Below, piece by piece: positions 2,284 to 60,215 of a stretch of DNA of 64,000 nucleotides. Positions within the stretch are counted from its first letter, which is position 1; every line of letters begins with the position of its first letter. The notes below the pieces were generated by a model. The model did not search any database, was not told where the DNA came from, and worked only from the letters and a program-made list of their open reading frames with translations. The stretch lies in the NCBI RefSeq assembly GCF_054482595.1, contig NZ_CM137008.1. One strand, given 5' to 3'. Both the position numbers and the translations under genes were made by a program.

Positions 2284-4716
2284 TTACAACAACTGTGCCA
2301 GCCGGTTGATATCCGACTGAATCGCCCCGGCGGTGACGTCGCGCCCCGCGCCAGGCCCACGGATCACCAGCGGGTTATCGCGATACCAGCGGCTTTCGAT
2401 GGCAAAGACGTTGTCGCACGGCAGCAGTGATGCCAGCGGATGGTCTTCACGCACCGCCTCCACGCCCACACGCGCTTTGCCGTTGGCATCGAAACGCGCC
2501 ACGTAGCGCAGCACCAGCCCCATTTCGCGGGCCGCTTCCAGCCGTTGCACCATCTGCTCGTTAAGTTCATCGCCATTTTCAAAGAAATGGTCGATGCTGC
2601 CGCCTTCGCAATGAGCAGGCACCAGCGATTCCACACGTACCTGGTCCGGTTCAATGTTGTAACCCGCTTCACGCGCCAGAATCACCAGCTTGCGCATTAC
2701 GTCTTTGCCGGAGAGGTCGTCACGCGGATCAGGCTCGGTTAAGCCCTGCTGCCACGCCTGATCCACCAGCTCGGTAAACGGCACGCTACCGTCGAATTGC
2801 AGGAACAGCCAGGAGAGCGTGCCGGAGAAGATCCCACTGATCGACAAAATAGTATCGCCGCTGTCGATCAGATCGCGCACGGTGTGGTTGATCGGCAAGC
2901 CCGCACCGACGGTGGCGTTGTACAGCCAGTGACGCCCGGTTTTTTCGAAGGCGTCGTGGATCTGGCGATATTTATTGCTGTCGCTTGCTCCCGCCAGTTT
3001 GTTGGCACTGATGACGTGGAAACCGTGGCTGGCGAAATCAAGATACTGGTCAGCCAGCTGCTGGCTGGCGGTAACGTCCAGCACCACTAAATCATCATAC
3101 GGATGGGCGCGCATCCACAGGAAAAGCGACTCTTCATCCTGCTCGACCGCTTCATCGTTGAAGAAGGCTAACGCGCGGCTGGCGTCCAGCCCGTCATAAC
3201 TCAACAGACTGCGGCGGCTGTCCACCACGCCTGCCAGCACAAATTCAAAGCCGGTACGCGCCGAAAGCGAGCTCTGCTCGCGGGCGAACAGTTCCAGCCA
3301 GCGGGAACCGATATTGCCTTTGCCGAACAATACCAGGCCGATGCGTTTTTCTGCGCGGAAGACGGACTGATGCAGGCCCTGAATCAGGCTTTCGGTCGGG
3401 CCGGTGCGCAGTACTGCCACCAGGCTGATGCCGTCATCGGACTGCCAGGTAAACTCGACCGGCTGGCCTTTCAGTTGCTGCCAGAAGCGGTGGCAATGCA
3501 GCGGGTTACGGGTGACACCCGCCCCGACCATCGCCACCAGCGCCAGCCCCTGACGCAGGCGCAGTTCGCCAGGTAATCCCGCTTCGTCGAGGATTTTCAG
3601 CGCACTGTCGGCCACTTCTGAGGTGTAGCAAAATTGCAGCAACTGGCGATCGTTATGCACGCCAACCGCCAGTGGACGCACCTGGGCACGTTTCAGGATT
3701 TGGTCGATCTCTTTATGCGCCAGTTTGAAATCCTGACTGGCGGGCACCTGAAACTCAATCAAACAGACATCATCGTGGCTGGTGACAATACGCGCACCAG
3801 TACCGGAGGCCAGCACGCGTTCAATGCGCGTGGAACCTTGATCCGGCGTGTAGCTACAGCGCAGCTGCAGGTCGATTTCGCTGCCAGAAACTGGCTGTAA
3901 AGTACGGGCGTGAAGAACGGGAGCCGCCAGACGCGCCAGTTCGCTGGCCTCATCCAGACGCAGCAACGGCAGCAGGCAGGCATCTTTCACTTTACGCGGG
4001 TCGGCACTGTATACCCCGGCGACGTCGCTCCAGATGGTTACGCGAGAAACACCCGCCAGCGCACCGATTTGTGTCGCGGAATAGTCGGAACCGTTACGCC
4101 CCAGCAGCACCGTTTCACCGGCGTTGTTACGGCTGATAAACCCGGTCACCACCAGACGTTTACCCGGATGTTGTACCAGTAGCTGTTGCAGCAACGGGTA
4201 AGAAAGCCCTTCATCAACCTGCGGTTGCGCAGCGCGTTCAGCGCGTAAAAACTCGCGGGCATCAAGCCAGGCCGCTGGCAGCCCTTGTTGATTAAGTACC
4301 GCAGACATCAGTCGCGCCGACCACACTTCACCGTGGCCCACCACTTCCGCATACACTGCGTCGTTAATACCGCTGTCGAGCAGCGCCGCCAGGCGCTCAA
4401 GATCGCTGACAAAAGCGCTAATGAGGCTATCGGCTTCTTCGGCGGGTAGCAGGCCGCTAATCAGATCGCACTGATAGCGACGCAGCGTTTGTTGAACCTG
4501 ATGCGCAGAGAGACGATCGGTCTGGCTTAGTTTCAACCAGTTAATCAACTGGTTAGTGGTGCTACCGGCGGCGGAAACCACCATCATATCGTCAGGCTGA
4601 GAGTACTCCGCCATAATGCCCGCGACACGCAAATAACACTTCACATCAGCCAGACTACTGCCACCAAATTTATGCAGCTGACGACCTTTCGCCCCTGCCT
4701 GCGCAATCACACTCAT
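2284..4716 (-). CDS. metL: Bifunctional aspartokinase II / homoserine dehydrogenase II
   Basis: 810-aa ORF MSVIAQAGAKGRQLHKFGGSSLADVKCYLRVAGIMAEYSQPDDMMVVSAAGSTTNQL... recognised as MetL. Confidence 0.95.
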   Translation of the reverse strand: MSVIAQAGAKGRQLHKFGGSSLADVKCYLRVAGIMAEYSQPDDMMVVSAAGSTTNQLINWLKLSQTDRLSAHQVQQTLRRYQCDLISGLLPAEEADSLISAFVSDLERLAALLDSGINDAVYAEVVGHGEVWSARLMSAVLNQQGLPAAWLDAREFLRAERAAQPQVDEGLSYPLLQQLLVQHPGKRLVVTGFISRNNAGETVLLGRNGSDYSATQIGALAGVSRVTIWSDVAGVYSADPRKVKDACLLPLLRLDEASELARLAAPVLHARTLQPVSGSEIDLQLRCSYTPDQGSTRIERVLASGTGARIVTSHDDVCLIEFQVPASQDFKLAHKEIDQILKRAQVRPLAVGVHNDRQLLQFCYTSEVADSALKILDEAGLPGELRLRQGLALVAMVGAGVTRNPLHCHRFWQQLKGQPVEFTWQSDDGISLVAVLRTGPTESLIQGLHQSVFRAEKRIGLVLFGKGNIGSRWLELFAREQSSLSARTGFEFVLAGVVDSRRSLLSYDGLDASRALAFFNDEAVEQDEESLFLWMRAHPYDDLVVLDVTASQQLADQYLDFASHGFHVISANKLAGASDSNKYRQIHDAFEKTGRHWLYNATVGAGLPINHTVRDLIDSGDTILSISGIFSGTLSWLFLQFDGSVPFTELVDQAWQQGLTEPDPRDDLSGKDVMRKLVILAREAGYNIEPDQVRVESLVPAHCEGGSIDHFFENGDELNEQMVQRLEAAREMGLVLRYVARFDANGKARVGVEAVREDHPLASLLPCDNVFAIESRWYRDNPLVIRGPGAGRDVTAGAIQSDINRLAQLL

Positions 4717-4718
4717 TT

Positions 4719-5879
4719 TTACCCCTTGTTTGCAGCCCGGAAGCCATTTTCCAGGTCGGCAATTAAATCTTCGCCATCTTCAATACCGGTGGAGATACGC
4801 AGCAGCGTCTCGGAGATCCCGGCGGCAGCACGCGCTTCTGGCGCCATGCCTGCATGTGTCATGGTTGCGGCGTGAGAGATTAAACTTTCCACTCCCCCTA
4901 ACGATTCCGCCAGCGTAAACAACGACAGCCCGCCCAGGAAACGACGCAGCGTCTGCTCATCGCCATCCAGTTCAAAACTCAACATTGCGCCAAAGCCTTT
5001 TTGCTGACGCGCGGCAATTTCATGCCCCTGATTTTCCGGCAGCGACGGGTGATACAGTTTTTTCACCAACGGCTGGGTTTGCAGATATTTCACAATCGCC
5101 TGCGCGTTGCGCTGCGCCAGCTCCATACGCGGCACCAGCGTTCGCAACCCGCGTAGCAGCAGATAGCTGTCAAACGCGCCGCCCGTCACGCCAATATTGT
5201 TTGCCCACCAGGCAAGTTCAGTGACAACGTCCGGGTCTTTAGCAATCACCACGCCAGCCACCACGTCAGAGTGACCGTTCAGATATTTCGTACATGAATG
5301 CAACACCAGATCGGCACCCAATGCCAGCGGATTTTGTAATGCCGGGCTTAAGAAGGTGTTATCCACCACGCTCACCGCCCCGACTTCCCTTGCCAGATGG
5401 CAGATTTTCGCAATATCCACGACGCGTAACAATGGATTACTTGGGCTTTCTACCAGTACCAGTTTGGGGTTTTCTGCCAGCGCTGCCCGTAATGCCTGTT
5501 CATCGCCTTGATCAACAAACAACACGCGATAGCAACCGCGTTTCGCCAGGCTGTCGAACAGGCGATAGCTACCGCCGTAGCAGTCGTGCGGCGCAACCAG
5601 CAGATCGCCAGGTTTCAAAAAGACGGTCGTTACCAGGTGAATCGCGGACATGCCGGTATTAGTAAGTACTGCACCAGCACCGCCTTCCAGTTCTGCCAGC
5701 GCACGCTGAACCACATCGCGCGTTGGGTTGCCGCGACGCGAGTAATCATGCGCGCGCGGTTCATTAAATCCGGTAAAGTTATAGGTGCTGGAAAGATGGA
5801 TGGGAGGGACAACGCAACCATACTGTTCGTCGTCATTTAACCCGCTACGCACTGCGATGGTGGCCTGTTTACGCGTCAT
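4719..5879 (-). CDS. metB: Cystathionine gamma-synthase (PLP-dependent)
   Basis: ORF track gives 445 aa, but recognised MetB begins at internal MTRKQATIAVRSGLNDDEQYG...; ATG at 5879 gives 386 aa; 3 bp downstream of metL start (metBL operon). Confidence 0.9.
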   Translation of the reverse strand: MTRKQATIAVRSGLNDDEQYGCVVPPIHLSSTYNFTGFNEPRAHDYSRRGNPTRDVVQRALAELEGGAGAVLTNTGMSAIHLVTTVFLKPGDLLVAPHDCYGGSYRLFDSLAKRGCYRVLFVDQGDEQALRAALAENPKLVLVESPSNPLLRVVDIAKICHLAREVGAVSVVDNTFLSPALQNPLALGADLVLHSCTKYLNGHSDVVAGVVIAKDPDVVTELAWWANNIGVTGGAFDSYLLLRGLRTLVPRMELAQRNAQAIVKYLQTQPLVKKLYHPSLPENQGHEIAARQQKGFGAMLSFELDGDEQTLRRFLGGLSLFTLAESLGGVESLISHAATMTHAGMAPEARAAAGISETLLRISTGIEDGEDLIADLENGFRAANKG

Positions 5880-5940
5880 GTGATGAAGTTCCCTGGGCTT
5901 GGTCGGTGAAATGTCAGGCACCAGAGTAAACATTGTGTTA

Positions 5941-5976
5941 ATGGACGTCAATACATCTGGACATCTAAACTTCTTT
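5941..5976. promoter_or_regulatory. metB/metJ divergent control region with met boxes
   Basis: ggacgtcaatacatctggacatctaaac: tandem 8-bp units resembling AGACGTCT in the metB-metJ intergenic region. Confidence 0.6.
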
Positions 5977-6155
5977 GCGTATAGATTGAGCAAATCCCAA
6001 ATAGCCGTTAAAATTATATGCATTATCACGCCGACAGATGCATTACACGATGTCACGGTAACGCCTGTACGGTAAACTATGCGGGTTTACGGTCAGTACC
6101 CACATAAATTGTGTGGTCTGGTCTCAATTTATTGACGAAGAGGATTAAGTATCTC

Positions 6156-6473
6156 ATGGCTGAATGGAGCGGCGAATATATCAGCCCATACGCTGAGCAC
6201 GGCAAGAAGAGTGAACAAGTCAAAAAGATTACGGTTTCCATTCCTCTTAAGGTGTTAAAAATCCTCACCGATGAACGCACGCGTCGTCAGGTGAACAACC
6301 TGCGTCACGCTACCAACAGCGAGCTGCTGTGCGAAGCGTTTCTGCATGCCTTTACCGGGCAACCTTTGCCGGATGATGCCGATCTGCGTAAAGAGCGCAG
6401 CGACGAAATCCCGGAAGCGGCAAAAGAGATCATGCGTGAGATGGGGATTAACCCGGAGACGTGGGAATACTAA
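6156..6473 (+). CDS. metJ: Methionine repressor (ribbon-helix-helix)
   Basis: [62 protein letters not shown]... recognised as MetJ (105 aa); ORF-track start 6111 is an upstream extension. Confidence 0.95.
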
Positions 6474-6532
6474 AGCGGAAAAGAGCGGCGCGGAGTTAAC
6501 CTGCCGCTTTTTTCATACAAGGACGTTTAACG

Positions 6533-7141
6533 ATGAAAATCAGGCTACTGATCCTCAGCCTGCTGGTTTCTGTGCCTGCCTTTGCCTGGCAGCCGCAAAC
6601 TGGCGACATCATCTTTCAAATCTCTCGCTCATCGCAAAGTAAAGCGATCCAACTGGCGACCCATTCCGATTACAGCCACACCGGTATGCTGGTGATGCGT
6701 AACAAAAAGCCCTACGTTTTTGAAGCGGTCGGCCCGGTGAAATACACCCCGCTCAAGCAGTGGATTGCCCATGGTGAAAAGGGCAAATACGTTGTTCGCC
6801 GCGTTGAAGGCGGACTGAGTGTTGAACAACAGCAAAAACTGGCGCAAACGGCGAAACGTTATCTCGGCAAACCGTACGATTTCAGCTTCTCATGGAGCGA
6901 CGATCGCCAGTACTGTTCGGAAGTGGTGTGGAAGGTTTATCAGAATGCGCTGGGAATGCGCGTGGGCGAACAGCAGAAGTTGAAAGAGTTTGATCTCAGC
7001 AACCCGCTGGTCCAGGCGAAGCTCAAAGAACGCTACGGCAAAAATATTCCGCTTGAGGAAACGGTAGTTTCACCACAAGCCGTTTTCGACGCGCCACAAC
7101 TCACCACGGTCGCCAAAGAATGGCCGCTGTTTTCGTGGTAA
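6533..7141 (+). CDS. yiiX: YiiX family protein (permuted papain-fold/NlpC-P60-like putative lipid-binding hydrolase) with signal peptide
   Basis: 202-aa ORF MKIRLLILSLLVSVPAFAWQPQTGDIIFQISRSSQSKAIQLATHSDYSHTGMLV..., recognised as YiiX. Confidence 0.9.
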   Translation: MKIRLLILSLLVSVPAFAWQPQTGDIIFQISRSSQSKAIQLATHSDYSHTGMLVMRNKKPYVFEAVGPVKYTPLKQWIAHGEKGKYVVRRVEGGLSVEQQQKLAQTAKRYLGKPYDFSFSWSDDRQYCSEVVWKVYQNALGMRVGEQQKLKEFDLSNPLVQAKLKERYGKNIPLEETVVSPQAVFDAPQLTTVAKEWPLFSW

Positions 7142-7285
7142 TGGATGATAAAAAAAATAATTCCCGCCGTAGTCTGTTTGTTGCTTTGTAGTTGCACGAC
7201 CTTTCCGCAAGCTGTCGCTCCGGTAAACGGTGATGCCTCCAATTAGTTGAATTAAGGATATAATACTCGCTTTTAAGGTTGTTTC

Positions 7286-7558
7286 ATGGTCACAGTTAAC
7301 CTTCATTGTCCCCGTTGCCAGTCCGTTCAGGTTTACCGTCACGGGCAGAACCCCAAAAGACATGATCGATTCCGCGGCCGTGACTGTCACCGGGTATTTC
7401 AGCTCAGTTACTGTTACGAGCCCCGTAAACCGGGAGTTAAAGACCAAATCGCTGAAATGGCTTTCAACGGTGCCGGGGTTCGCTATACTGCCCGTACGCT
7501 GAAAATCGGCATTAATACAGTCATCCGAACTTTAAAAAACTCTCGCCACGAAGAATAA
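7286..7558 (+). CDS. insA: IS1 InsA-like protein (zinc-finger/HTH)
   Basis: 90-aa ORF MVTVNLHCPRCQSVQVYRHGQ...NGAGVRYTARTLKIGINTVIRTLKNSRHEE; CxxC...CxxC layout and C-terminal LKNS tail as in IS1 InsA, but strongly diverged. Confidence 0.8.
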   Translation: MVTVNLHCPRCQSVQVYRHGQNPKRHDRFRGRDCHRVFQLSYCYEPRKPGVKDQIAEMAFNGAGVRYTARTLKIGINTVIRTLKNSRHEE

Positions 7559-7990
7559 CGTCATCCCCGGTCGCTCATGCTGATGTGGCACTCATCTGCG
7601 AACTTAGTCAGCAATGGAGCTTTGTCGGCAGTAAAGCGCGACAGCACTGGCTCTGGTACGTGTACAACACGAAAACTGGTGGTGTTCTGGCCTACACTTT
7701 TGGCCCCCGGACTGATGAAACCTGTCGTGAATTGCTGGCGCTGCTTACCCTTTTACCATCGGCATGTTGACCACTGACGAATGGGGTAGTTACGCTAGAG
7801 AGTTACCAAAGGAGAAGCATCTGACTGGTAAGATTTTTACTCAGCACATTGAGCGTAACAATCTGACCCTGAGAACCCGAATCAAACGTCTGGCCCGCAA
7901 AACCATCTGTTTCTCGAGTTCTGTAGAACTTCATGAAAAAGTCATCGGTGCTTTTATCGAAAATATATGTTCTACTAATTGGAGTCATCA
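7540..7990 (+). pseudogene. insB: IS1 insB-like transposase region carrying an extra frameshift
   Basis: InsB-like similarity (QQWSFVGSKARQHWLWYVYN...) continues in one frame to a stop near 7770, then resumes in another frame (YPFTIGMLTTDEWGSYAREL...HEKVIGAF). Confidence 0.6.
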
Positions 7991-8047
7991 CCCTTCTGAT
8001 GAGCTTTCCTTGGATGATTACCAGACTGAATACACAGCCAAAGATTT

Positions 8048-8371
8048 TTACCTCATTCTGCTCTTTTTTCTCAAATGACATATATTATATTTTACATCAT
8101 ATTCATAGGCATATGACATTCCCCCGCCCCCCATTATGTCATTGTGGGTTGATGTTGGGCTTTCATAAAAAAATACATCTTTTTTTGAACTAGCATTAAT
8201 TATATTTACTTTATATATTAAAATATTTTCTCCATCTGGAAATATTTTAGCCACACAATATAAAGCAGCTAAATCCGAATTACTTAAAAATACATTGTCA
8301 TCACTCATAACTCCAGCCATTAAATGACTGGAGACTAAAGCAAGGAAATAACAACATTGTATTGCCTTCAT
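8048..8371 (-). CDS. Putative immunity protein for the adjacent Rhs C-terminal toxin; hydrophobic N-terminus
   Basis: ATG at 8371 lies 1 nt after the toxin stop (8373-8375) with GGGAG 8 nt upstream; product MKAIQCCYFLALVSSHLMAGV... about 107 aa; AT-rich. Confidence 0.65.
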   Translation of the reverse strand: MKAIQCCYFLALVSSHLMAGVMSDDNVFLSNSDLAALYCVAKIFPDGENILIYKVNIINASSKKDVFFYESPTSTHNDIMGGGGMSYAYEYDVKYNICHLRKKSRMR

Positions 8372-8372
8372 T

Positions 8373-9410
8373 TTAATTACTCCCTTGCCTGATAATTGTA
8401 ACTCCATTCCCTTTAGCTTTGGGATTATATTTTAGATAGGTGTTATTTGGTGTTCCCAAGTAACTACTGTATTCTTTTTTTCCCATTCCATTCATATAAG
8501 AATTCGTTAAATCTTTGCTTGAAAAATTTAGACTATCATAAACATCATTTTCTTTTGTTACTTTATTTCCTTTATCGTCAGAGTAAAAACCGTGAGTGTG
8601 ATAATCGCCTACTCTCTCTGAACCTTCAGGGCATTTTATATTTCGCAAGTCTACACTATCATTATCATTTGAACTTATCGGATTCATGGGAAAATATTCA
8701 CCTTGCTTCTTACATATTAGTCCACCATATTCTTTAATCTCGTTAATTGATTCTCCATTACACATTGCCAATGCAAATATTCCAATATCATCTATATTTT
8801 TTGATTTAAATTCATATAATCCCAATGGATCCATGCCATTCACCGGGCTCAGCGGATATGTATACAGGTTCCATCCCCCCTTCAGCCCAATCGGATCCTG
8901 AGTGATATACCGCCCCTGCAGCGGGTCATAATAGCGGTGGCGGTTGTAATACAGGCCGGACTCCTCATCATACTGCTGACCCGGCAGGCGGATGAGCTGC
9001 TGCAGCTGGTGCGGGTTCTCTTCATTCAGCAGGTTGCCCCATTCATCGTATTCTGCGCACCATTCTGTAGCCCCTTCCGTGCTGATAAGCGCCAGCGGCA
9101 GGCCGCGATGGTCGCAGTGGTACAGGTGGATTTTTCGCGCCGGCGTGTACACCGGGTCCATCTGGTTTTGCATCTGCTCCACCGTCAGGCCGCACGATGC
9201 CAGCCAGCGGCGACTTTCCTCACTCACCCGGTCAGCCAGGATTTCACTTTCCAGCCGGTCGAGCATCTGCACCAGCACCGGCGGGAACACCACACTGCCA
9301 CCGTCTTCGCCGCCGGACTGCTGAAGCGCATCCGCCAGGCTGCGGCGCTGCGTTTTCGCCAGCTCACCGGTGGCGGTTTCAACCCTGATGAGTGGCGTGA
9401 AGCCAGGGCA
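8373..9410 (-). CDS. Orphan Rhs core-end plus C-terminal toxin domain (5'-truncated, no native start)
   Basis: Frame is open from the H-repeat junction (about 9410): [32 protein letters not shown]...[17 protein letters not shown]...[10 protein letters not shown] followed by a 147-aa AT-rich variable domain (about 8373-8816). Confidence 0.8.
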
Positions 9411-10653
9411 AGATTACGAAAGCCCGCTCCCCGCAAGGACTGACGCCAGATAGTTTCTGTCCATGGCTGCTTTTCGCATCTTACGTCTTAACCCTGCCTT
9501 GAATACCTTATCATTCGTCAAAATATTAATAGCAATGTGCCGTATCCCTGAAAATAATTCTGCTGCATTTCCTCTTCTTATTTTGCAGTCGTCTTCATTC
9601 ATTACCACGTCCAGACGCCAGTGCAGCTTATTCTCCACGTGCCAGTGATTTCGGATCGCTGTGGCGAATTTCTCAGCGGTTAAATCAGCAGAACTGATAT
9701 AATATCTGACCGTCATTTCTGGCTCTTTCTTTTGCTCTGCTATTATGGACCGAAAGGAGACTGCCACGCATAATTTCTTCAGCCCTTTCCATTCAAACGT
9801 GAAATCAATAAGTTCATCAGGGACATCGCAAACAATATGAAGACGGATTTCTTCTCTGCCGTGACTCTTTTCACTAATTGCGTAACTGTCATGCTCTGGA
9901 TTATTTAATTCTTTCAGCGGAAATTTTTCCTCAAAGGCTTTATTAAGCCGCCCCTGGTTACCTTTTACCGCGAATAAATAATCACCGCCCTGTTTTTGTA
10001 TCTTCTCTGCGATATCTTTCTGGCAACCCATCGCATCAGTTGTGATAATTTTCCCTTTAATATCCAGCATGTTAAGAAGTTCAGGGATAGCTGTAATCTC
10101 ATTAGATTTCTCATCCGTCTTGATCTGTCCGATGACCAGACTGTGCATTGTTGAGAACGCACTAATGACATGAATCGCTCCCCTGCGGCGACTCTTGTCA
10201 TAAGAATGCCGGAGCGTTTTTCCATCAATTGCAATGACGTCTTTATCATCTGAAGAATGACAATCACGCATCCAGTTAATAAAGCACTCATGAAATTTTG
10301 TAGGGCTGATACAGGATACAACTCTGGCAATGGTATCGTGAACAGGAATACCATTTTCAAAATCACCATATTGCTTCAAAAAATCGAGATGTGTTTCCCC
10401 AAAATCCTCTATATCTTCCCAACCTTCTGCACCCGAAATAACGGCACAAATAGTCAACAGTAGAATATCTGATAATTTATGTTCCACTTTCTAGGCTTGT
10501 CTGTAATCGGGGATAATAGAAATATGTTCCATCAATTTTTTAAGTTCCATTTTGTTCTCCTTAATTATACAAGGAGTATTTGATCATGTATAAGCAATAA
10601 AAGACAGCTTTAGGTAATGAGGAATATCTCAATTTTTAAACATAAAATGCGAA
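9411..10653 (-). mobile_element. H-repeat (ISAs1-family) element inserted within the Rhs remnant; boundaries approximate
   Basis: Contains the ISAs1/H-rpt transposase reading frame; flanked by the Rhs N-terminal fragment on one side and the Rhs core-end on the other. Confidence 0.6.
9414..10550 (-). pseudogene. ISAs1-family (H-repeat-associated, YhhI-like) transposase with in-frame amber stop at codon 20
   Basis: ATG at 10550 reads MELKKLMEHISIIPDYRQA then TAG (10493-10491), continuing in frame as [37 protein letters not shown]... (357-aa ORF from GTG at 10487). Confidence 0.75.
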
Positions 10654-11076
10654 TTATTTAGTACAAAAAGTGTACTTCTGATGATCTTTCCCTGGAAACA
10701 GGTGCTCAAAATACAGGCTTCTGCCGCCGTTATCACTGAGTATCAGTGTGTTATCGCGCAGCTGTAAGCGGATATCCGCAGGCATTTTCCAGCCGGGGCC
10801 GAGGCTCCCCACCGGCGCGGGCGTTTTTGTCCGATAACTGCTGTAGGTGCGGGAGAGAATGAACGGCAGCGGGGCGGGCAGGGCGATGTCGGTTTCACCG
10901 GGAAGGACCTTTGCACCCAGCAGCGGATTGACCGGATGGCCGGACGTCACCCCGCCGGGGCACACCGAACAGGCCACGCCGGTGGGGGCACCGATGCGCA
11001 CCCCGGCTGAACCCTGGACAATGCTACCGCCATACTGCGTCATGTCGCCCTGACGCGCCGCCGGTTTTCCGCTCAT
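10654..11076 (-). pseudogene. Rhs N-terminal fragment (PAAR domain) truncated after about 125 aa of Rhs sequence
   Basis: MSGKPAARQGDMTQYGGSIVQGSAGVRIGAPTGVACSVCPGG...LRDNTLILSDNGGRSLYFEHL is the typical Rhs N-terminus; unrelated tail FPGKDHQKYTFCTK then stop. Confidence 0.8.
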
Positions 11077-11235: not shown

Positions 11236-11487
<252 letters not shown>

Positions 11488-11491
11488 CTAA

Positions 11492-13849
<2,358 letters not shown>

Positions 13850-31329: not shown

Positions 31330-31425
31330 TATGCGGCGCGAACGCCTTATCCGGCCTACAAAAGTTTGCAAATTCAATAAATTGCAGAATTCATGTAGGC
31401 CTGATAAGCGAAGCGCATCAGGCAT
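31330..31425. repeat. REP/BIME element between sbp and pfkA
   Basis: tgcggcgcgaacgccttatccggcctaca ... tgtaggcctgataagcgaagcgcatcaggca: inverted REP pair. Confidence 0.85.
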
Positions 31426-36392: not shown

Positions 36393-36490
36393 ACTCCGCA
36401 TTTGTAGGCAGGATAAGGCGTTTACGCCGCATCCGGCATTTGAGCAGGATGCCTGATGCGACGCTGATAGCGTCTTATCAGGCCTACACT
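36393..36490. repeat. REP/BIME element downstream of cpxA
   Basis: tgtaggcaggataaggcgtttacgccgcatccggca ... gcctgatgcgacgctgatagcgtcttatcaggcctac. Confidence 0.85.
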
Positions 36491-45276: not shown

Positions 45277-45600
45277 GCCGGATGCGGCGCGAGCGCCTTA
45301 TCCGGCCTACAGGTCGGCAACAGTTGTAGGCCTGATAAGACGCGACAGCGTCGCATCAGGCATTGATTGCCGGATACGGCACGAGTGCCTTATCCGGCCT
45401 ACAGGTCGGCAATAGTTGTAGGCCTGATAAGACGCGACAGCGTCGCATCAGGCATTGATTGCCGGATGCGGCACGAGCGCCTTATCCGGCCTACAGGTCG
45501 GCAATAGTTGTAGGCCTGATAAGACGCGACAGCGTCGCATCAGGCATTGATTGCCGGATGCGGCACGAGCGCCTTATCCGGCCTACGGGTCGTGCATCCG
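45277..45600. repeat. Tandem BIME array: about 3.5 copies of a 92-bp unit built from REP palindromes
   Basis: gccggatgcggc recurs at 45277, 45369 (as gccggatacggc), 45461 and 45553, period 92 bp; each unit has an inverted REP pair (gccttatccggcctaca / tgtaggcctgataag...gcatcaggc). Confidence 0.9.
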
Positions 45601-53116: not shown

Positions 53117-53950
53117 TTAATTGCTCAAACGCTGCGGATGGGTATAAACCGTTGCCCGACCCGGTTTACAAAAACCTACCAGTGTCAAATTACAGCGCTC
53201 AGCCACTTCTACAGCAAGCGTGGTCGCGGCAGACACCGCAAACAAAATCTCTACGCCGCACATCGCCGACTTTTGCACCATTTCATAACTGGCACGACTG
53301 GAAACCAGTACCGCACCTTGCTGCCAGCTTTCCCCTTCTTGTGACCGGCGGCCTAACAGTTTGTCCAGCGCCACATGGCGACCCACGTCTTCATGCCCGC
53401 CGACCAGTTCGCCAGATGGCAACATCCAGGCAGCGGCGTGAGTACAACCAGTCAGTTGCCCCACTGGCTGAAAATCGTTGAGATGACGTAATGCATCATC
53501 CAGTTTGTTGAGATCAAACGTCTGGGTGAACGGTAGCGGCTGCACCGGTTTTCCGATGTCATTAAGTTGCTCCACGCCGCATACGCCACAGCCCGTACGT
53601 CCCGCCAGCGCCCGGCGGCGCTCCTTCAACCCCATAAAGCGGCGGCTGGAAAGCTCAATTTGTACTTCAAGACCATTACAGGAAGGAACGACATCCATGC
53701 CGAAGATATCGCGCGGACTTTCTATTATCCCCTCGGAAAGCGAAAAACCGAGCGCAAAGTACTCAAGGTCTTTGGGCGACGCCATCATCACCACATGCGA
53801 AATGCCGTTGTAGACCAGCGCAACGGGAACTTCTTCCGCGACCTCATCCAACCGTGGGTGTTGTAAATCGTCACGCCGCCATAACTCAATTTGACGAACA
53901 CCTGTGATATTCATCACATTTTTGATTTCTTTTTGCTGTGTTTTTTTCAC
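53117..53950 (-). CDS. fdhD: Formate dehydrogenase accessory sulfurtransferase FdhD
   Basis: 277-aa [62 protein letters not shown]... recognised as FdhD. Confidence 0.9.
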
Positions 53951-54143
53951 TTTCTCTTAACCAGATAAGAACACACACACCAACATTATGGTATTCTGTT
54001 ACAAACCCTTCCTGGATGGAGGGAAATTGAGCCAATTCTGGACCTTTGCGGCCCCTTCCGCAAAGAAAAATAACTCCCACTCCCTGCACACTCAGCAAGC
54101 GAATGTAAATGGGACGTGACAATGTCGAAACAAGGAGCAATCC

Positions 54144-57100
54144 ATGCAGGTCAGCAGAAGGCAGTTCTTTAAGATCTGCGCTGGCGGTATGGCAGGCACC
54201 ACGGCAGCGGCACTGGGTTTTGCACCCAGCGTAGCACTCGCGGAAACCCGGCAGTATAAACTGCTGCGCACCCGCGAAACCCGTAATACCTGCACCTATT
54301 GTTCCGTAGGCTGTGGGCTGTTGATGTACAGCCTCGGTGACGGAGCAAAAAACGCCAAAGCATCTATCTTCCATATCGAAGGCGATCCGGATCACCCGGT
54401 CAACCGCGGTGCACTTTGTCCGAAAGGCGCTGGCCTGGTGGATTTCATCCACTCCGAAAGCCGTCTGAAGTTCCCGGAATACCGTGCCCCTGGTTCTGAT
54501 AAATGGCAGCAAATCAGTTGGGAAGAGGCGTTTGATCGCATCGCCAAACTGATGAAAGAAGACCGCGATGCTAACTACATTGCGCAAAACGCCGAAGGCG
54601 TGACCGTTAACCGCTGGCTCTCCACCGGGATGCTGTGTGCTTCCGCGTCGAGTAACGAAACCGGCTATTTAACGCAAAAATTCTCCCGCGCGCTGGGTAT
54701 GCTCGCGGTCGACAACCAGGCGCGTGTCTGACACGGACCAACGGTAGCAAGTCTTGCTCCAACATTTGGTCGCGGTGCGATGACCAACCACTGGGTCGAC
54801 ATCAAGAACGCCAACCTCGTCGTGGTGATGGGCGGTAACGCCGCTGAAGCTCACCCGGTCGGATTCCGCTGGGCGATGGAAGCCAAAATTCACAACGGCG
54901 CGAAGCTGATTGTGCTCGATCCTCGCTTTACGCGTACGGCGGCAGTGGCTGACTACTATGCCCCTATTCGTTCCGGTACTGACATTGCTTTCCTGTCAGG
55001 CGTATTGCTGTACCTGCTGAACAATGAAAAATTCAACCGCGAATACACCGAAGCCTATACCAACGCCAGCCTGATCGTGCGTGAGGATTACGGCTTTGAA
55101 GATGGCCTGTTCACCGGCTACGACGCAGAAAAACGCAAGTACGATAAATCCTCCTGGACTTACGAACTGGACGAAAACGGCTTCGCCAAACGCGATACCA
55201 CGCTGCAACATCCGCGCTGCGTGTGGAACTTGCTGAAACAGCACGTTTCCCGCTACACGCCAGATGTGGTTGAAAACATCTGTGGTACGCCAAAAGACGC
55301 GTTCCTGAAAGTCTGCGAATACATCGCAGAAACCAGTGCTCACGATAAAACTGCCTCGTTCCTGTATGCCCTCGGCTGGACGCAACACTCCGTTGGTGCG
55401 CAAAACATTCGTACGATGGCGATGATCCAGCTGCTGCTCGGCAACATGGGGATGGCAGGCGGCGGCGTTAACGCCCTGCGCGGTCACTCCAATATTCAGG
55501 GGCTGACGGACCTGGGCCTTCTGTCGCAGAGCCTGCCAGGTTACATGACGCTGCCAAGCGAGAAGCAGACCGATCTGCAAACCTACCTTACCGCCAACAC
55601 GCCAAAACCGCTGCTGGAAGGCCAGGTAAACTACTGGGGCAACTACCCGAAATTCTTCGTCTCCATGATGAAGGCTTTCTTTGGTGATAAAGCAACGGCG
55701 GAAAATAGCTGGGGCTTTGACTGGTTGCCGAAGTGGGATAAAGGCTACGACGTCCTGCAATACTTCGAGATGATGAAAGAGGGCAAGGTCAATGGCTATA
55801 TCTGCCAGGGCTTTAACCCTGTTGCCTCATTCCCGAACAAAAACAAAGTGATCGGTTGTCTGTCGAAACTGAAGTTCCTCGTCACCATCGACCCGCTGAA
55901 CACTGAAACCTCTAACTTCTGGCAGAACCACGGTGAGCTGAACGAAGTTGACTCGTCGAAGATCCAGACCGAAGTGTTCCGTCTGCCATCGACCTGCTTC
56001 GCGGAAGAGAACGGTTCTATCGTAAACTCAGGTCGCTGGTTGCAGTGGCACTGGAAAGGTGCGGACGCCCCAGGGATTGCGCTGACTGATGGCGAGATCC
56101 TCTCCGGTATCTTCCTGCGCTTGCGCAAGATGTATGCCGAACAGGGTGGCGCGAACCCGGACCAGGTGCTGAACATGACCTGGAACTACGCCATTCCGCA
56201 TGAGCCGAAGTCGGAAGAAGTAGCGATGGAGAGCAACGGTAAGGCGCTGGCCGATATTACCGATCCGGCAACCGGTGCGGTTATCGTCAAGAAAGGCCAA
56301 CAACTTAGCTCGTTTGCCCAACTTCGCGATGACGGTACAACTTCCTGTGGTTGCTGGATTTTCGCCGGTAGCTGGACGCCGGAAGGCAACCAGATGGCAC
56401 GCCGTGATAACGCCGATCCGTCTGGCCTCGGTAACACGCTGGGCTGGGCATGGGCATGGCCGCTTAACCGCCGCATTCTGTATAACCGCGCCTCCGCAGA
56501 TCCGCAGGGTAACCCGTGGGATCCGAAGCGTCAGTTGCTGAAATGGGACGGCACTAAGTGGACCGGCTGGGATATTCCGGACTACAGCGCAGCGCCTCCG
56601 GGTAGCGGCGTCGGGCCGTTTATCATGCAGCAGGAAGGCATGGGGCGTCTGTTTGCCCTCGATAAGATGGCGGAAGGTCCGTTCCCGGAACACTACGAGC
56701 CGTTTGAAACGCCGCTGGGAACTAACCCGCTGCATCCAAACGTTATCTCGAACCCGGCTGCACGTATCTTTAAAGACGACGCCGAAGCATTGGGTAAAGC
56801 CGATAAGTTCCCGTATGTCGGAACCACCTATCGTCTGACCGAGCACTTCCACTACTGGACCAAACACGCGCTGTTGAACGCGATTTTGCAACCAGAGCAG
56901 TTTGTGGAAATCGGGGAGTCGCTGGCGAATAAACTTGGCATTGCCCAGGGCGATACCGTGAAAGTCTCCTCCAACCGTGGCTATATCAAAGCCAAAGCGG
57001 TGGTGACCAAACGTATTCGTACGCTGAAAGCGAACGGCAAAGATATCGATACCATCGGTATTCCGATTCACTGGGGTTATGAAGGCGTAGCTAAAAAAGG

Positions 57101-57194
57101 CTTTATTGCCAATACGTTAACGCCATTCGTTGGTGATGCGAACACGCAGACGCCGGAGTTTAAGTCCTTCCTTGTGAATGTGGAAAAGGTGTAA
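54144..57194 (+). CDS. fdoG: Formate dehydrogenase-O alpha subunit; selenoprotein with in-frame UGA (Sec) at 54729-54731
   Basis: Two ORF-track pieces (54144-54731 and 54780-57194) share one frame across a single TGA; TAT signal MQVSRRQFFKICAGGMAGTTAAALGFAPSVALA; ...LAVDNQARV-U-HGPTVASLAPTFGRGAMTNHW...; 1016 codons in total. Confidence 0.9.
54732..54780 (+). promoter_or_regulatory. Putative SECIS element directing selenocysteine insertion at the fdoG UGA
   Basis: Stem-loop-capable sequence immediately 3' of the UGA (ggtAGCAAGtcTTGCTcc); bacterial SECIS elements lie directly downstream of the recoded codon. Confidence 0.5.
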
Positions 57195-57206
57195 CGGAGA
57201 CGACAT

Positions 57207-58109
57207 ATGGCTTATCAATCTCAAGATATCATTCGTCGTTCCGCGACTAACGGTCTGACCCCCGCGCCTCAGGCGCGGGACTTCCAGGAAGAAGTGGCGA
57301 AACTCATCGACGTCACCACCTGTATCGGCTGTAAAGCCTGTCAGGTGGCGTGTTCAGAGTGGAACGACATTCGCGATACCGTCGGCAATAACATTGGGGT
57401 GTACGACAACCCCAATGATTTAAGCGCCAAATCGTGGACGGTAATGCGCTTCTCGGAAGTGGAGCAGAACGACAAACTGGAATGGCTGATCCGCAAAGAC
57501 GGCTGTATGCACTGTTCCGATCCAGGCTGCCTGAAAGCGTGCCCGGCGGAAGGTGCAATTATTCAGTATGCCAACGGTATCGTCGACTTCCAGTCCGAGC
57601 AGTGCATTGGCTGCGGTTATTGCATTGCGGGCTGTCCGTTCGACATTCCGCGCCTCAACCCGGAAGACAACCGCGTCTACAAATGTACGCTGTGCGTTGA
57701 CCGCGTGGTGGTTGGGCAAGAACCAGCCTGCGTGAAGACCTGCCCAACGGGCGCGATTCACTTCGGTACGAAAGAGTCGATGAAAACGCTGGCGAGCGAG
57801 CGCGTTGCTGAGCTGAAAACCCGCGGTTACGACAATGCGGGTCTGTACGATCCGGCAGGCGTCGGTGGTACACACGTCATGTACGTGCTGCACCATGCTG
57901 ACAAGCCAAATCTGTATCATGGCTTGCCGGAGAACCCGGAAATCAGCGAAACCGTGAAATTCTGGAAAGGCATCTGGAAACCGCTCGCGGCTGTTGGCTT
58001 TGCGGCTACCTTTGCGGCCAGTATCTTCCACTACGTGGGTGTCGGTCCGAACCGTGCGGATGAGGAAGAGAATAATCTGCACGAAGAGAAAGACGAGGAG
58101 CGCAAATGA
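57207..58109 (+). CDS. fdoH: Formate dehydrogenase-O iron-sulfur (beta) subunit
   Basis: 300-aa ORF with multiple CxxCxxCxxxCP ferredoxin motifs; recognised as FdoH. Confidence 0.95.
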
Positions 58110-58741
58110 AACGACGTGACACCATCGTGCGCTACACCGCGCCGGAACGTATCAACCACTGGATCACCGCCTTCTGCTTCATCCTGGCGGCGGTGAGCGG
58201 GCTGGGCTTTTTGTTCCCGTCCTTCAACTGGTTGATGCAAATCATGGGCACACCGCAGCTGGCGCGAATTCTGCACCCGTTTGTCGGCGTGGTTATGTTT
58301 GCCTCGTTCATCATCATGTTTTTCCGTTACTGGCATCACAACCTAATCAATCGGGATGATATCTTTTGGGCGAAGAATATTCGTAAGATCGTCGTCAACG
58401 AGGAAGTAGGTGACACCGGGCGTTATAACTTCGGTCAGAAATGCGTTTTCTGGGCGGCGATTATTTTCCTGGTTCTGCTGCTGGTGAGCGGCGTGATTAT
58501 CTGGCGTCCTTATTTTGCGCCTGCTTTCTCAATCCCGGTGATCCGATTCGCGTTAATGCTGCATTCATTTGCCGCAGTGGCGTTAATTGTGGTTATCATG
58601 GTGCATATCTACGCCGCCCTTTGGGTGAAAGGCACGATTACCGCCATGGTGGAAGGATGGGTTACCAGCGCCTGGGCGAAGAAACATCACCCGCGCTGGT
58701 ACCGTGAGGTCCGCAAGACAACGGAAAAGAAAGCTGAATGA
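58106..58741 (+). CDS. fdoI: Formate dehydrogenase-O cytochrome b556 (gamma) subunit
   Basis: 211-aa polytopic [40 protein letters not shown]...; overlaps fdoH stop. Confidence 0.9.
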
Positions 58742-59667
58742 GTATTCGCATAATCCCGCAAGATGAGCTGGGTTCGAGCGAGAAACGTACGGCGGATATG
58801 ATTCCGCCGTTATTGTTCCCTCGGCTCAAGAATTTATACAACCGCCGCGCCGAGCGTCTGCGCGAGCTGGCAGAAAATAATCCGCTGGGTGATTACCTGC
58901 GCTTTGCTGCGCTTATCGCCCACGCCCAGGAAGTGGTGCTGTACGACCATCCGCTGGAGATGGATCTGACCGCGCGCATTAAAGAAGCCAGCGCACAGGG
59001 CAAGCCCCCGCTGGATATTCACGTTCTGCCGCGTGATAAGCACTGGCAAAAGCTGCTGATGGCGCTGATTGCTGAGCTGAAACCTGAAATGAGCGGCCCG
59101 GCGCTGGCAGTGATTGAGAATCTGGAGAAGGCATCAACTCAGGAGCTGGAAGATATGGCCAGCGCACTGTTTGCCTCTGATTTCTCATCCGTCAGCAGCG
59201 ATAAAGCGCCGTTTATCTGGGCTGCACTGTCGCTCTACTGGGCGCAGATGGCCAATCTGATCCCCGGCAAAGCCCGCGCTGAATACGGCGAGCAACGTCA
59301 ATATTGCCCGGTTTGTGGTTCTATGCCGGTGTCCAGCATGGTGCAAATTGGCACCACTCAGGGTCTGCGTTACCTGCACTGCAACCTGTGTGAAACCGAA
59401 TGGCACGTAGTGCGCGTAAAATGCAGCAACTGCGAGCAGAGCGGCAAACTGCATTACTGGTCGCTGGATGACGAACAGGCCGCGATTAAAGCCGAAAGCT
59501 GCGATGACTGTGGCACTTACCTGAAGATTCTTTATCAGGAAAAAGAACCGAAAGTTGAAGCCGTGGCAGATGACCTCGCTTCTCTGGTACTGGACGCGCG
59601 AATGGAGCAAGAAGGCTATGCCCGCAGTTCCATCAACCCGTTCCTGTTTCCGGGTGAAGGGGAGTAA
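58738..59667 (+). CDS. fdhE: Formate dehydrogenase formation protein FdhE
   Basis: 309-aa [51 protein letters not shown]... with paired CxxC motifs; recognised as FdhE. Confidence 0.9.
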
Positions 59668-59859
59668 TCTCTGACGTTTTCCGGGTGGCGCTGGTCGCCC
59701 GGATTACAGCTCATAGGGTGTGACGACACCATCTCTCGTATTCCGCGTTACCCATTCAAGATCATGCCGCAATTGTCTGTTTGCCTCGTTCTTCCCTCCA
59801 ACACATCGATAAGGTTATGGGTATGTCACTGATGACAAGCGTATGATTGCCTGATGCGC

Positions 59860-59950
59860 TGCGCTTATCAGCCCTACCAATAAACTTCAATATATTGAAT
59901 TTGCATGACTTTGTAGGCCGGATAAGGCGTTCACGCCGCATCCGGCATGA
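59860..59950. repeat. REP/BIME element downstream of fdhE
   Basis: gcctgatgcgctgcgcttatcagccctac ... tgtaggccggataaggcgttcacgccgcatccggca. Confidence 0.85.
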
Positions 59951-59996
59951 ACAACGCGCACGTTGTCAGCAATCTGATTGACATCATTTTTTCCCA

Positions 59997-60215
59997 TTAC
60001 CATTCCTCGCGCAGCTTACGCTGATATTCGACACCATCTTCCTCACACCCTTGCCAGATGCCAGGAACACTGGTTCTTGCTGTTTGCGATTGATTTATCA
60101 GGTATTGATCTACCGCTTCCCTTAATAGGTCCGCACGAGGAAGATTACGCTGCACCTCGAGATCATCAAGTTGCTTAATCACCTCATTCGATAAATCGAG
60201 TAAAATTCTGCCCAT
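59997..60215 (-). CDS. yiiF: Small ribbon-helix-helix (CopG/MetJ-like) putative regulator
   Basis: [42 protein letters not shown]... (72 aa from ATG at 60215); gene name assigned from position next to fdhE. Confidence 0.65.

Follow-up and report, generated by a model that had tools for sequence, protein, structure and literature searches.

An in-frame TGA within the coding sequence of a formate dehydrogenase alpha subunit raises the question of whether the codon ends translation or is read as selenocysteine (Sec). The window analysed here, a stretch of 64,000 nucleotides from contig NZ_CM137008.1 (assembly GCF_054482595.1), is, judging from its collinearity with E. coli strain XH990 (NZ_CP019359.1; 3 mismatches in 49,911 nt plus 1 in 11,401 nt, that is, 4 in 61 kb), a piece of the Escherichia coli chromosome. 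On its plus strand, positions 54144-57194 hold fdoG, the gene for the alpha (catalytic) subunit of formate dehydrogenase-O, which comprises 3051 nt and 1017 codons including the terminal TAA, and in which the only in-frame stop before the end is the TGA at 54729-54731 (+), codon 196. We consider, with a probability of about 97%, that this TGA is translated as selenocysteine rather than as a stop, and that a selenocysteine insertion hairpin (SECIS) lies directly downstream of it.

The sequence-only reading had stated that the open reading frames on the two sides of the TGA share one frame and together encode 1016 amino acids, and translation of 54144-57194 in a single frame gives exactly this, with one internal stop and the frame running for 820 more codons past the UGA. 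The nucleotides around the stop are GCG CGT GTC TGA CAC GGA, with a C as the base 3' of it (UGAC), and the peptide context is ...VDNQARV-*-HGPTVASL..., which in the selenocysteine form becomes ...QARV-U-HGPTVASLAPTFGR. A mechanical list of open reading frames splits the gene into 54144-54731 (195 aa) and 54780-57194 (804 aa), both on the plus strand, the latter starting at 54780 because no in-frame ATG lies between the TGA and that point. Both pieces belong to the same NCBIfam profile, TIGR01553 (cutoff 814.2 bits), of which the N-terminal piece covers positions 1-194 (271.4 bits) and the C-terminal piece positions 196-1009 (1276.3 bits); the TGA therefore fills exactly profile position 195. 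Further upstream in the product, the translation shows the motif SRRQFFK at codons 4-10 (54153-54173, +), the twin-arginine (Tat) motif of the signal peptide, an assignment that we take from established knowledge on FdnG and FdoG. Residues 1-33 are near-identical to those of FdnG (1kqf) in the alignment, and the [4Fe-4S] cysteine motif C50-x2-C53-x3-C57...C92 is present in FdoG, with the same residues in the aligned sequence of the FdnG structure.

The identity of the gene deserves some attention, since E. coli has in fdnG a paralog of fdoG, located in another operon (fdnGHI, next to yddG and yddM). In XH990, the NCBI annotation pipeline PGAP describes a single 3051-nt CDS under the label 'fdnG, formate dehydrogenase-N subunit alpha'. 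Despite this RefSeq/PGAP label, fdoG is by all comparisons of sequence and gene order the right name, because the gene is 98.75% identical at the nucleotide level to K-12 fdoG (b3894), with two amino acid differences, and only 74.9% identical to K-12 fdnG, because its neighbours are those of the fdo operon, and because the gamma subunit is of the FdoI type. The name given to the gene from sequence alone was hence the correct one. The gene order is the canonical fdhD<>fdoG-fdoH-fdoI-fdhE, with the same neighbours as in K-12. Downstream lie fdoH, for the iron-sulfur beta subunit (57207-58109, +; TIGR01582, 478.7 bits), fdoI, for the cytochrome b556 gamma subunit (58106-58741, +; NF007924), and fdhE, for a formate dehydrogenase accessory protein (58738-59667, +; NF002925, 604.1 bits); upstream and divergent lies fdhD, for the accessory sulfurtransferase (53117-53950, -; TIGR00129, 340 bits). 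These assignments agree with XH990 and K-12, where the beta subunit gene is likewise named fdoH. The two types of gamma subunit are separable by NCBIfam, and the one encoded here scores 453.3 bits with NF007924 (FdoI type) versus 243.6 bits with NF007558 (FdnI type). The gene yiiG is also found on the upstream side of fdoG, together with the divergent fdhD. A consensus scan for promoters and terminators over 53900-60100 returned fewer sites than shuffled sequences did and was uninformative.

Compared with its K-12 counterpart, fdoG in the window has the same 3051 nt, the TGA at the same codon 196, the same neighbours and identical sequence over the 60 nt from the UGA. The two genes differ at 38 nt over their whole length and at none within gene nucleotides 570-660, and nothing functional distinguishes them. 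A 3.4-kb query around fdoG matches 5425 of the 5426 complete E. coli genomes.

The position of the TGA within the protein is the first line of evidence for its recoding. The best match among solved structures is chain A of 1kqf, the structure of FdnG, the formate dehydrogenase-N alpha subunit (1902 bits, residues 1-1015). In this alignment, residue X196 of the query falls on the X (Sec196) of 1kqf inside the identical segment VDNQARVxHGPTVASLAPTFGRGAMTNHWVDIKNAN. Local alignment with K-12 FdhF places codon 196 on Sec140, within the homologous motif ...ARV-U-HGP... that both proteins share. The TGA thus stands at the catalytic position where it had been expected, and where Sec196 would provide the selenium that ligates the molybdenum (bis-MGD cofactor) in the active site. 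The second line of evidence comes from the relatives of this locus, which were collected by a scan with the pattern GTNGAYAAYCARGCNCGNGTNTGNCAYGG, taking one genome per species. In this pattern, VDNQARV upstream and His-Gly directly after the codon are required, the codon itself may be any TGN, and nothing is specified beyond His-Gly; at least 120 DNA stretches matched, of which 119 were usable. Among these listed matches, the codon is TGA in 119 of 119 loci, and none has a cysteine codon (TGC or TGT) at the Sec position, within a scope of close relatives that does not extend to the distant Cys-type formate dehydrogenases.

These observations bear on the simplest alternative, according to which the TGA would be a true stop or a nonsense mutation, leaving either a 195-aa fragment and a separately initiated 804-aa protein, or a pseudogene. 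Mechanical calling does yield two pieces, at least 1000 contigs carry the 195-aa one as a protein entry of its own, and some ribosomes are expected to terminate at the UGA, as selenocysteine insertion competes with RF2 (PMC4513850). Nevertheless, a genuine stop would not be expected to recur in all 119 listed relatives with the frame conserved on both sides, to coincide with selenocysteine in solved structures and to be followed by a SECIS element, or to separate two pieces that are contiguous in one family profile (TIGR01553), and no record exists of the 804-aa piece by itself. We regard termination as the normal fate of this codon as extremely improbable.

A downstream SECIS had been put forward as a candidate from the letters alone, and the search against Rfam identifies it as a bona fide one. 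The family RF01989 (SECIS_3) matches 54726-54784 (+) over its full model (1-59) with 84.3 bits and E = 1.6e-19, well above the gathering score of 63 bits, and this is the top Rfam match of the whole window. The location given by the sequence-only reading, 54729-54780, falls slightly short of the end of the Rfam match at 54784. The fdoG and fdnG genes of K-12 have the same SECIS_3 score and the same sequence as the element described here.

Within this element, the minimum free energy (MFE) and centroid folds agree on an apical hairpin at 54743-54760 (+), presumed to be the SelB-binding minihelix, in which 54743-54744 pair with 54759-54760 and 54746-54750 pair with 54754-54758. The U at 54745 is bulged, and the loop is formed by G-U-C at 54751-54753. 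Counting from the U of the UGA, the bulged nucleotide is U17, the loop nucleotides are G23, U24 and C25, and the hairpin consists of G15-G16, the bulged U17 and a stem at 18-22, starting with nucleotide 15, 11 nt after the UGA. Below it, a lower helix on the plus strand (54731-54776) pairs 54731-54741 with 54766-54776, although its register is uncertain, as the MFE fold is shifted by one position relative to the consensus of Rfam.

The folding energy was considered as evidence for the SECIS and rejected. The MFE of 54729-54780 is -14.6 kcal/mol, with z = -0.61 for these 52 nt, and 59 of 200 dinucleotide shuffles fold as well or better; for the 111 nt of 54700-54810, z is 0.10. With such values, no better than those of shuffles, the description of this sequence as stem-loop-capable is no evidence by itself, and the support for the element comes from the covariance model, from covariation and from the conservation of synonymous sites. 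Membership of the SECIS_3 family is not defined by stability above background.

The experimentally dissected bacterial SECIS is that of fdhF, which provides the reference for the hairpin found here. The two elements share the UGAC start, the beginning of the hairpin at nucleotide 15, the bulged U17 and the loop G23-U24-C25. For the fdhF element, binding by SelB is reported in a review (PMC8659212) to need a hairpin that starts 11 nt after the UGA, together with U17, G23 and U24, and the spacing and the three positions in fdoG agree with these requirements. There are also differences, since the fdhF element belongs to another family, Rfam RF01988 (SECIS_2), where K-12 fdhF scores 87.1 bits and the window only 28.1 bits against a gathering score of 70. 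The apical stem-loop has 18 nt here versus 17 nt in fdhF, A22 replaces G22, one extra potential A-U pair is present, and the sequence of the lower stem differs. The paralog fdnG from E. coli (1kqf/1kqg) likewise has Sec196, and its 60-nt SECIS is identical and falls into the same Rfam family with an equal score; FdnG also shares the Tat signal and the [4Fe-4S] cysteine motif with the FdoG described here. A literature search gave general SECIS reviews, with no dissection specific to fdoG among them.

Comparison among relatives supports the apical helix. The 62-mer from -3 to +59 is identical in 95 of the 119 listed loci, which hold 21 distinct 62-mers in total, and among these matches the identical version spans genera such as Citrobacter, Yersinia, Photorhabdus, Serratia and Proteus, plus others. 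Where the matches listed do differ, the changes are compensatory: the pair 54746/54758 goes from A-U to G-C in five cases and to U-A in one, and the pair 54749/54755 goes from A-U to C-G in three. Across the same listed matches, 99.7% of the cells of the apical helix are paired. Its covariation score was reached by none of 500 shuffles, and sliding the partners against each other makes pairing drop from 95% to 22-48%. RNAalifold recovers the apical helix independently, and an alignment of 109 sequences and 132 columns from the matches listed agrees with it. For the lower helix, 98.5% of the cells are paired among the listed matches, with six of the ten pairs invariant and a double change in one cell only; being near-invariant and of ambiguous register between Rfam and MFE, this helix is poorly tested by covariation.

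The hairpin also bears on a different way of reading the codon, in which the UGA would be decoded by a standard tRNA for Trp or Cys, acting as a near-cognate, and not by Sec-tRNA(Sec). The C that follows the stop lends this some plausibility, as UGAC is a weak termination context for RF2 that tolerates some near-cognate read-through. It leaves without explanation, however, the SECIS match with the bases of SelB recognition at their expected positions, and in solved structures selenocysteine occupies the corresponding residue. In addition, tRNA-Sec is nearly universal in E. coli, having been found in 5424 of 5426 complete genomes. A search for tRNA genes within the window found none, and hence no tRNA-Sec in it, and the machinery for selenocysteine lies elsewhere, so that the capacity for decoding is deduced from the species and not from the present sequence; the source genome very probably carries tRNA-Sec. 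Taken with the structural evidence, this makes decoding by a standard tRNA scarcely credible, and insertion of selenocysteine is the reading that we retain.

The third line of evidence is found in the coding sequence itself, where a zone of suppressed synonymous variation extends over 54729-54794 (+), as seen both in third-position entropy and in the identity between fdoG and fdnG. Among the 112 loci of the listed matches used for this purpose, and taking codons with conserved amino acids, with flanks that are equally conserved, codons +1 to +17 have a third-position entropy of 0.24 bit, versus 1.23 bit in codons -40 to -8, 1.06 bit in +18 to +40 and 1.17 bit in +41 to +69. The fall across the SECIS is about fivefold. 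Compared over their full length, fdoG from the window and fdnG from K-12 have their longest stretch of uninterrupted identity, 71 nt, at 54726-54796. Synonymous third positions are identical between both genes at 18 of 18 sites in the SECIS codons, in comparison with 348 of 557 gene-wide, and the chance of observing 18 identical sites would be 0.625^18, about 2e-4. Frozen synonymous sites of this kind are the expected mark of an RNA signal that lies within a coding sequence.

The same conservation might instead stem from gene conversion between fdoG and fdnG, or from recent horizontal spread, with no selection on RNA structure. The longest exact run between the paralogs (71 nt) does sit here, and in K-12 the two paralogs agree at all 60 nt following the UGA; conversion could add to the identity within a genome. 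What it does not account for is that the same 62-mer is found across many genera while the flanking synonymous sites are near saturation, that the changes in the element, where it differs, are compensatory within the apical helix, and that the conserved block begins exactly at the UGA. An origin of the pattern in conversion or horizontal spread is thus very unlikely, leaving selection on the RNA structure as the preferred explanation.

The lower stem ends at 54776 on its 3' side, but the synonymous freeze goes on for about 18 nt more, to approximately 54794, in many enterobacterial genera and in both paralogs. It is conceivable, though rather doubtful, that this constraint on the RNA past the hairpin marks an additional functional segment of the FdnG/FdoG type of SECIS, one undescribed for the model element of fdhF. 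Such a 3' tail could take part in a longer base helix around the UGA, or could serve as a spacer for the geometry between ribosome and SelB or for the competition with RF2. No more than some five informative codons carry the signal of extended constraint, which may be trivial. An outer helix between 54708-54719 (GUCGAC..CCAG) and 54791-54800 (CUGG GUCGAC), present in the MFE fold of the window, was considered as an explanation of this constraint and discarded, as it is not conserved: in 109 of the listed relatives, the pair 54710/54798 is unpaired in 54, 54719/54791 in 23 and 54711/54797 in 14. The apparent pairing arises because both arms encode Val-Asp.

With selenocysteine as the reading of codon 196, the expression of fdoG would proceed in the way established for bacterial selenoproteins; the binding of SelB, the incorporation of selenium and the part of Sec196 in catalysis are taken from that established knowledge. 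The apical stem-loop at 54743-54760 would present the bulged U17 and the loop nucleotides G23 and U24 at 11 nt after the UGA. When the ribosome stands at this codon, the hairpin would tether the elongation factor SelB carrying Sec-tRNA(Sec), the product of selC charged through SelA and SelD, so that a SelB·GTP·Sec-tRNA(Sec) complex would sit on the apical hairpin. SelB would then deliver selenocysteine, competing with release factor 2 at the UGA. The expected outcome is a full-length, Tat-exported FdoG of 1016 amino acids with molybdopterin and [4Fe-4S], the catalytic subunit of formate dehydrogenase-O, which would assemble with FdoH and FdoI, encoded immediately downstream.

The consequences of this reading are mainly practical. 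Recognising the UGA as recoded gives the correct 1016-aa subunit, where otherwise one obtains a 195-aa stub and a remainder lacking its N-terminus, a common error in public data; the gain concerns the quality of annotation only. The warning about automated callers splitting or truncating the gene holds for many pipelines, as the fragment on record attests, but not for PGAP, which reports one 3051-nt CDS. The exact 195-aa fragment appears as a separate predicted protein on those contigs, at least 1000 in number, and its cluster at 90% identity has 3382 members, nearly all of them of 195 aa; some copies of the stub are misnamed 'sulfate ABC transporter substrate-binding protein'.

Sec196 of fdoG and its SECIS constitute one of the three classic selenoprotein cases of E. 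coli. The finding is confirmed as correct and as already known, being that of a textbook selenoprotein gene which reference genomes already annotate and for which Rfam and the PDB have entries, and nothing new on recoding is learned from this locus. What fdoG does offer is a clean illustration of dual coding, in which an overlapping RNA signal freezes the synonymous sites of the sequence that carries it.

Beyond the selenocysteine insertion hairpin (SECIS) of fdoG, the third-codon synonymous sites of 54777-54794 are nearly invariant over about 18 nt 3' of the end of its lower stem (112 loci among the matches listed), and this near-invariance spans many genera and both paralogs, fdoG and fdnG. 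When these two genes are compared with each other, they share an exact run of 71 nt, whose 3' end lies at 54796. A candidate outer helix pairing 54708-54719 with 54791-54800 was rejected, since its conservation is absent.

The gene at 54144-57194 (4245-7295 in the database locus L001) is named in RefSeq/PGAP annotations of E. coli genomes as "fdnG, formate dehydrogenase-N subunit alpha", a label that comes from the NCBIfam model TIGR01553. Despite this label, sequence and synteny identify it as fdoG. Its 195-aa N-terminal stub (54144-54728, P0001), which ends at the selenocysteine codon, appears as an independent protein entry on at least 1000 contigs, in a cluster of 3382 members. In databases, some copies from Cronobacter and Hafnia carry the name "sulfate ABC transporter substrate-binding protein", which is evidently an annotation error.

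Regarding other elements of the window, the REP-type repeats, which appear in Rfam as naRNA4 and ES036, stand as an array of three in the rhaA-rhaD interval (45329-45583, minus strand) and singly downstream of cpxA and close to pfkA, with sub-threshold partial copies 3' of fdhE; other Rfam coordinates are 36407-36484, 31361-31402 and 59916-59952 (plus strand), and 59870-59912 (minus strand). All belong to the ordinary repeats found between E. coli genes. Two gathering-level Rfam matches, the L31 ribosomal protein leader 5' of rpmE (11455-11507, minus strand) and the ClpQY (hslVU) promoter element (16119-16176, plus strand), are each found at their expected location. Between yiiX and rpmE, collinearity with the L125 stretch of the near-identical strain XH990 places a group of clustered, degraded elements of mobile and RHS type (~7286-11076). 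In that strain the group consists of two transposases, one of IS1 (frameshifted) and one of ISEc1 (interrupted by an internal stop), together with fragments of an RHS core and of DUF6531.

At the 5' end of fdoG, the Rfam family RF02778 ("FdoG-1 5' UTR thermometer") gives a sub-threshold match at 53975-54173 on the plus strand (31.9 bits, E = 4.6e-5; gathering score, 50), positioned exactly over both the fdhD-fdoG intergenic region and the fdoG start codon. The region may represent a diverged homolog of an RNA thermometer already described.
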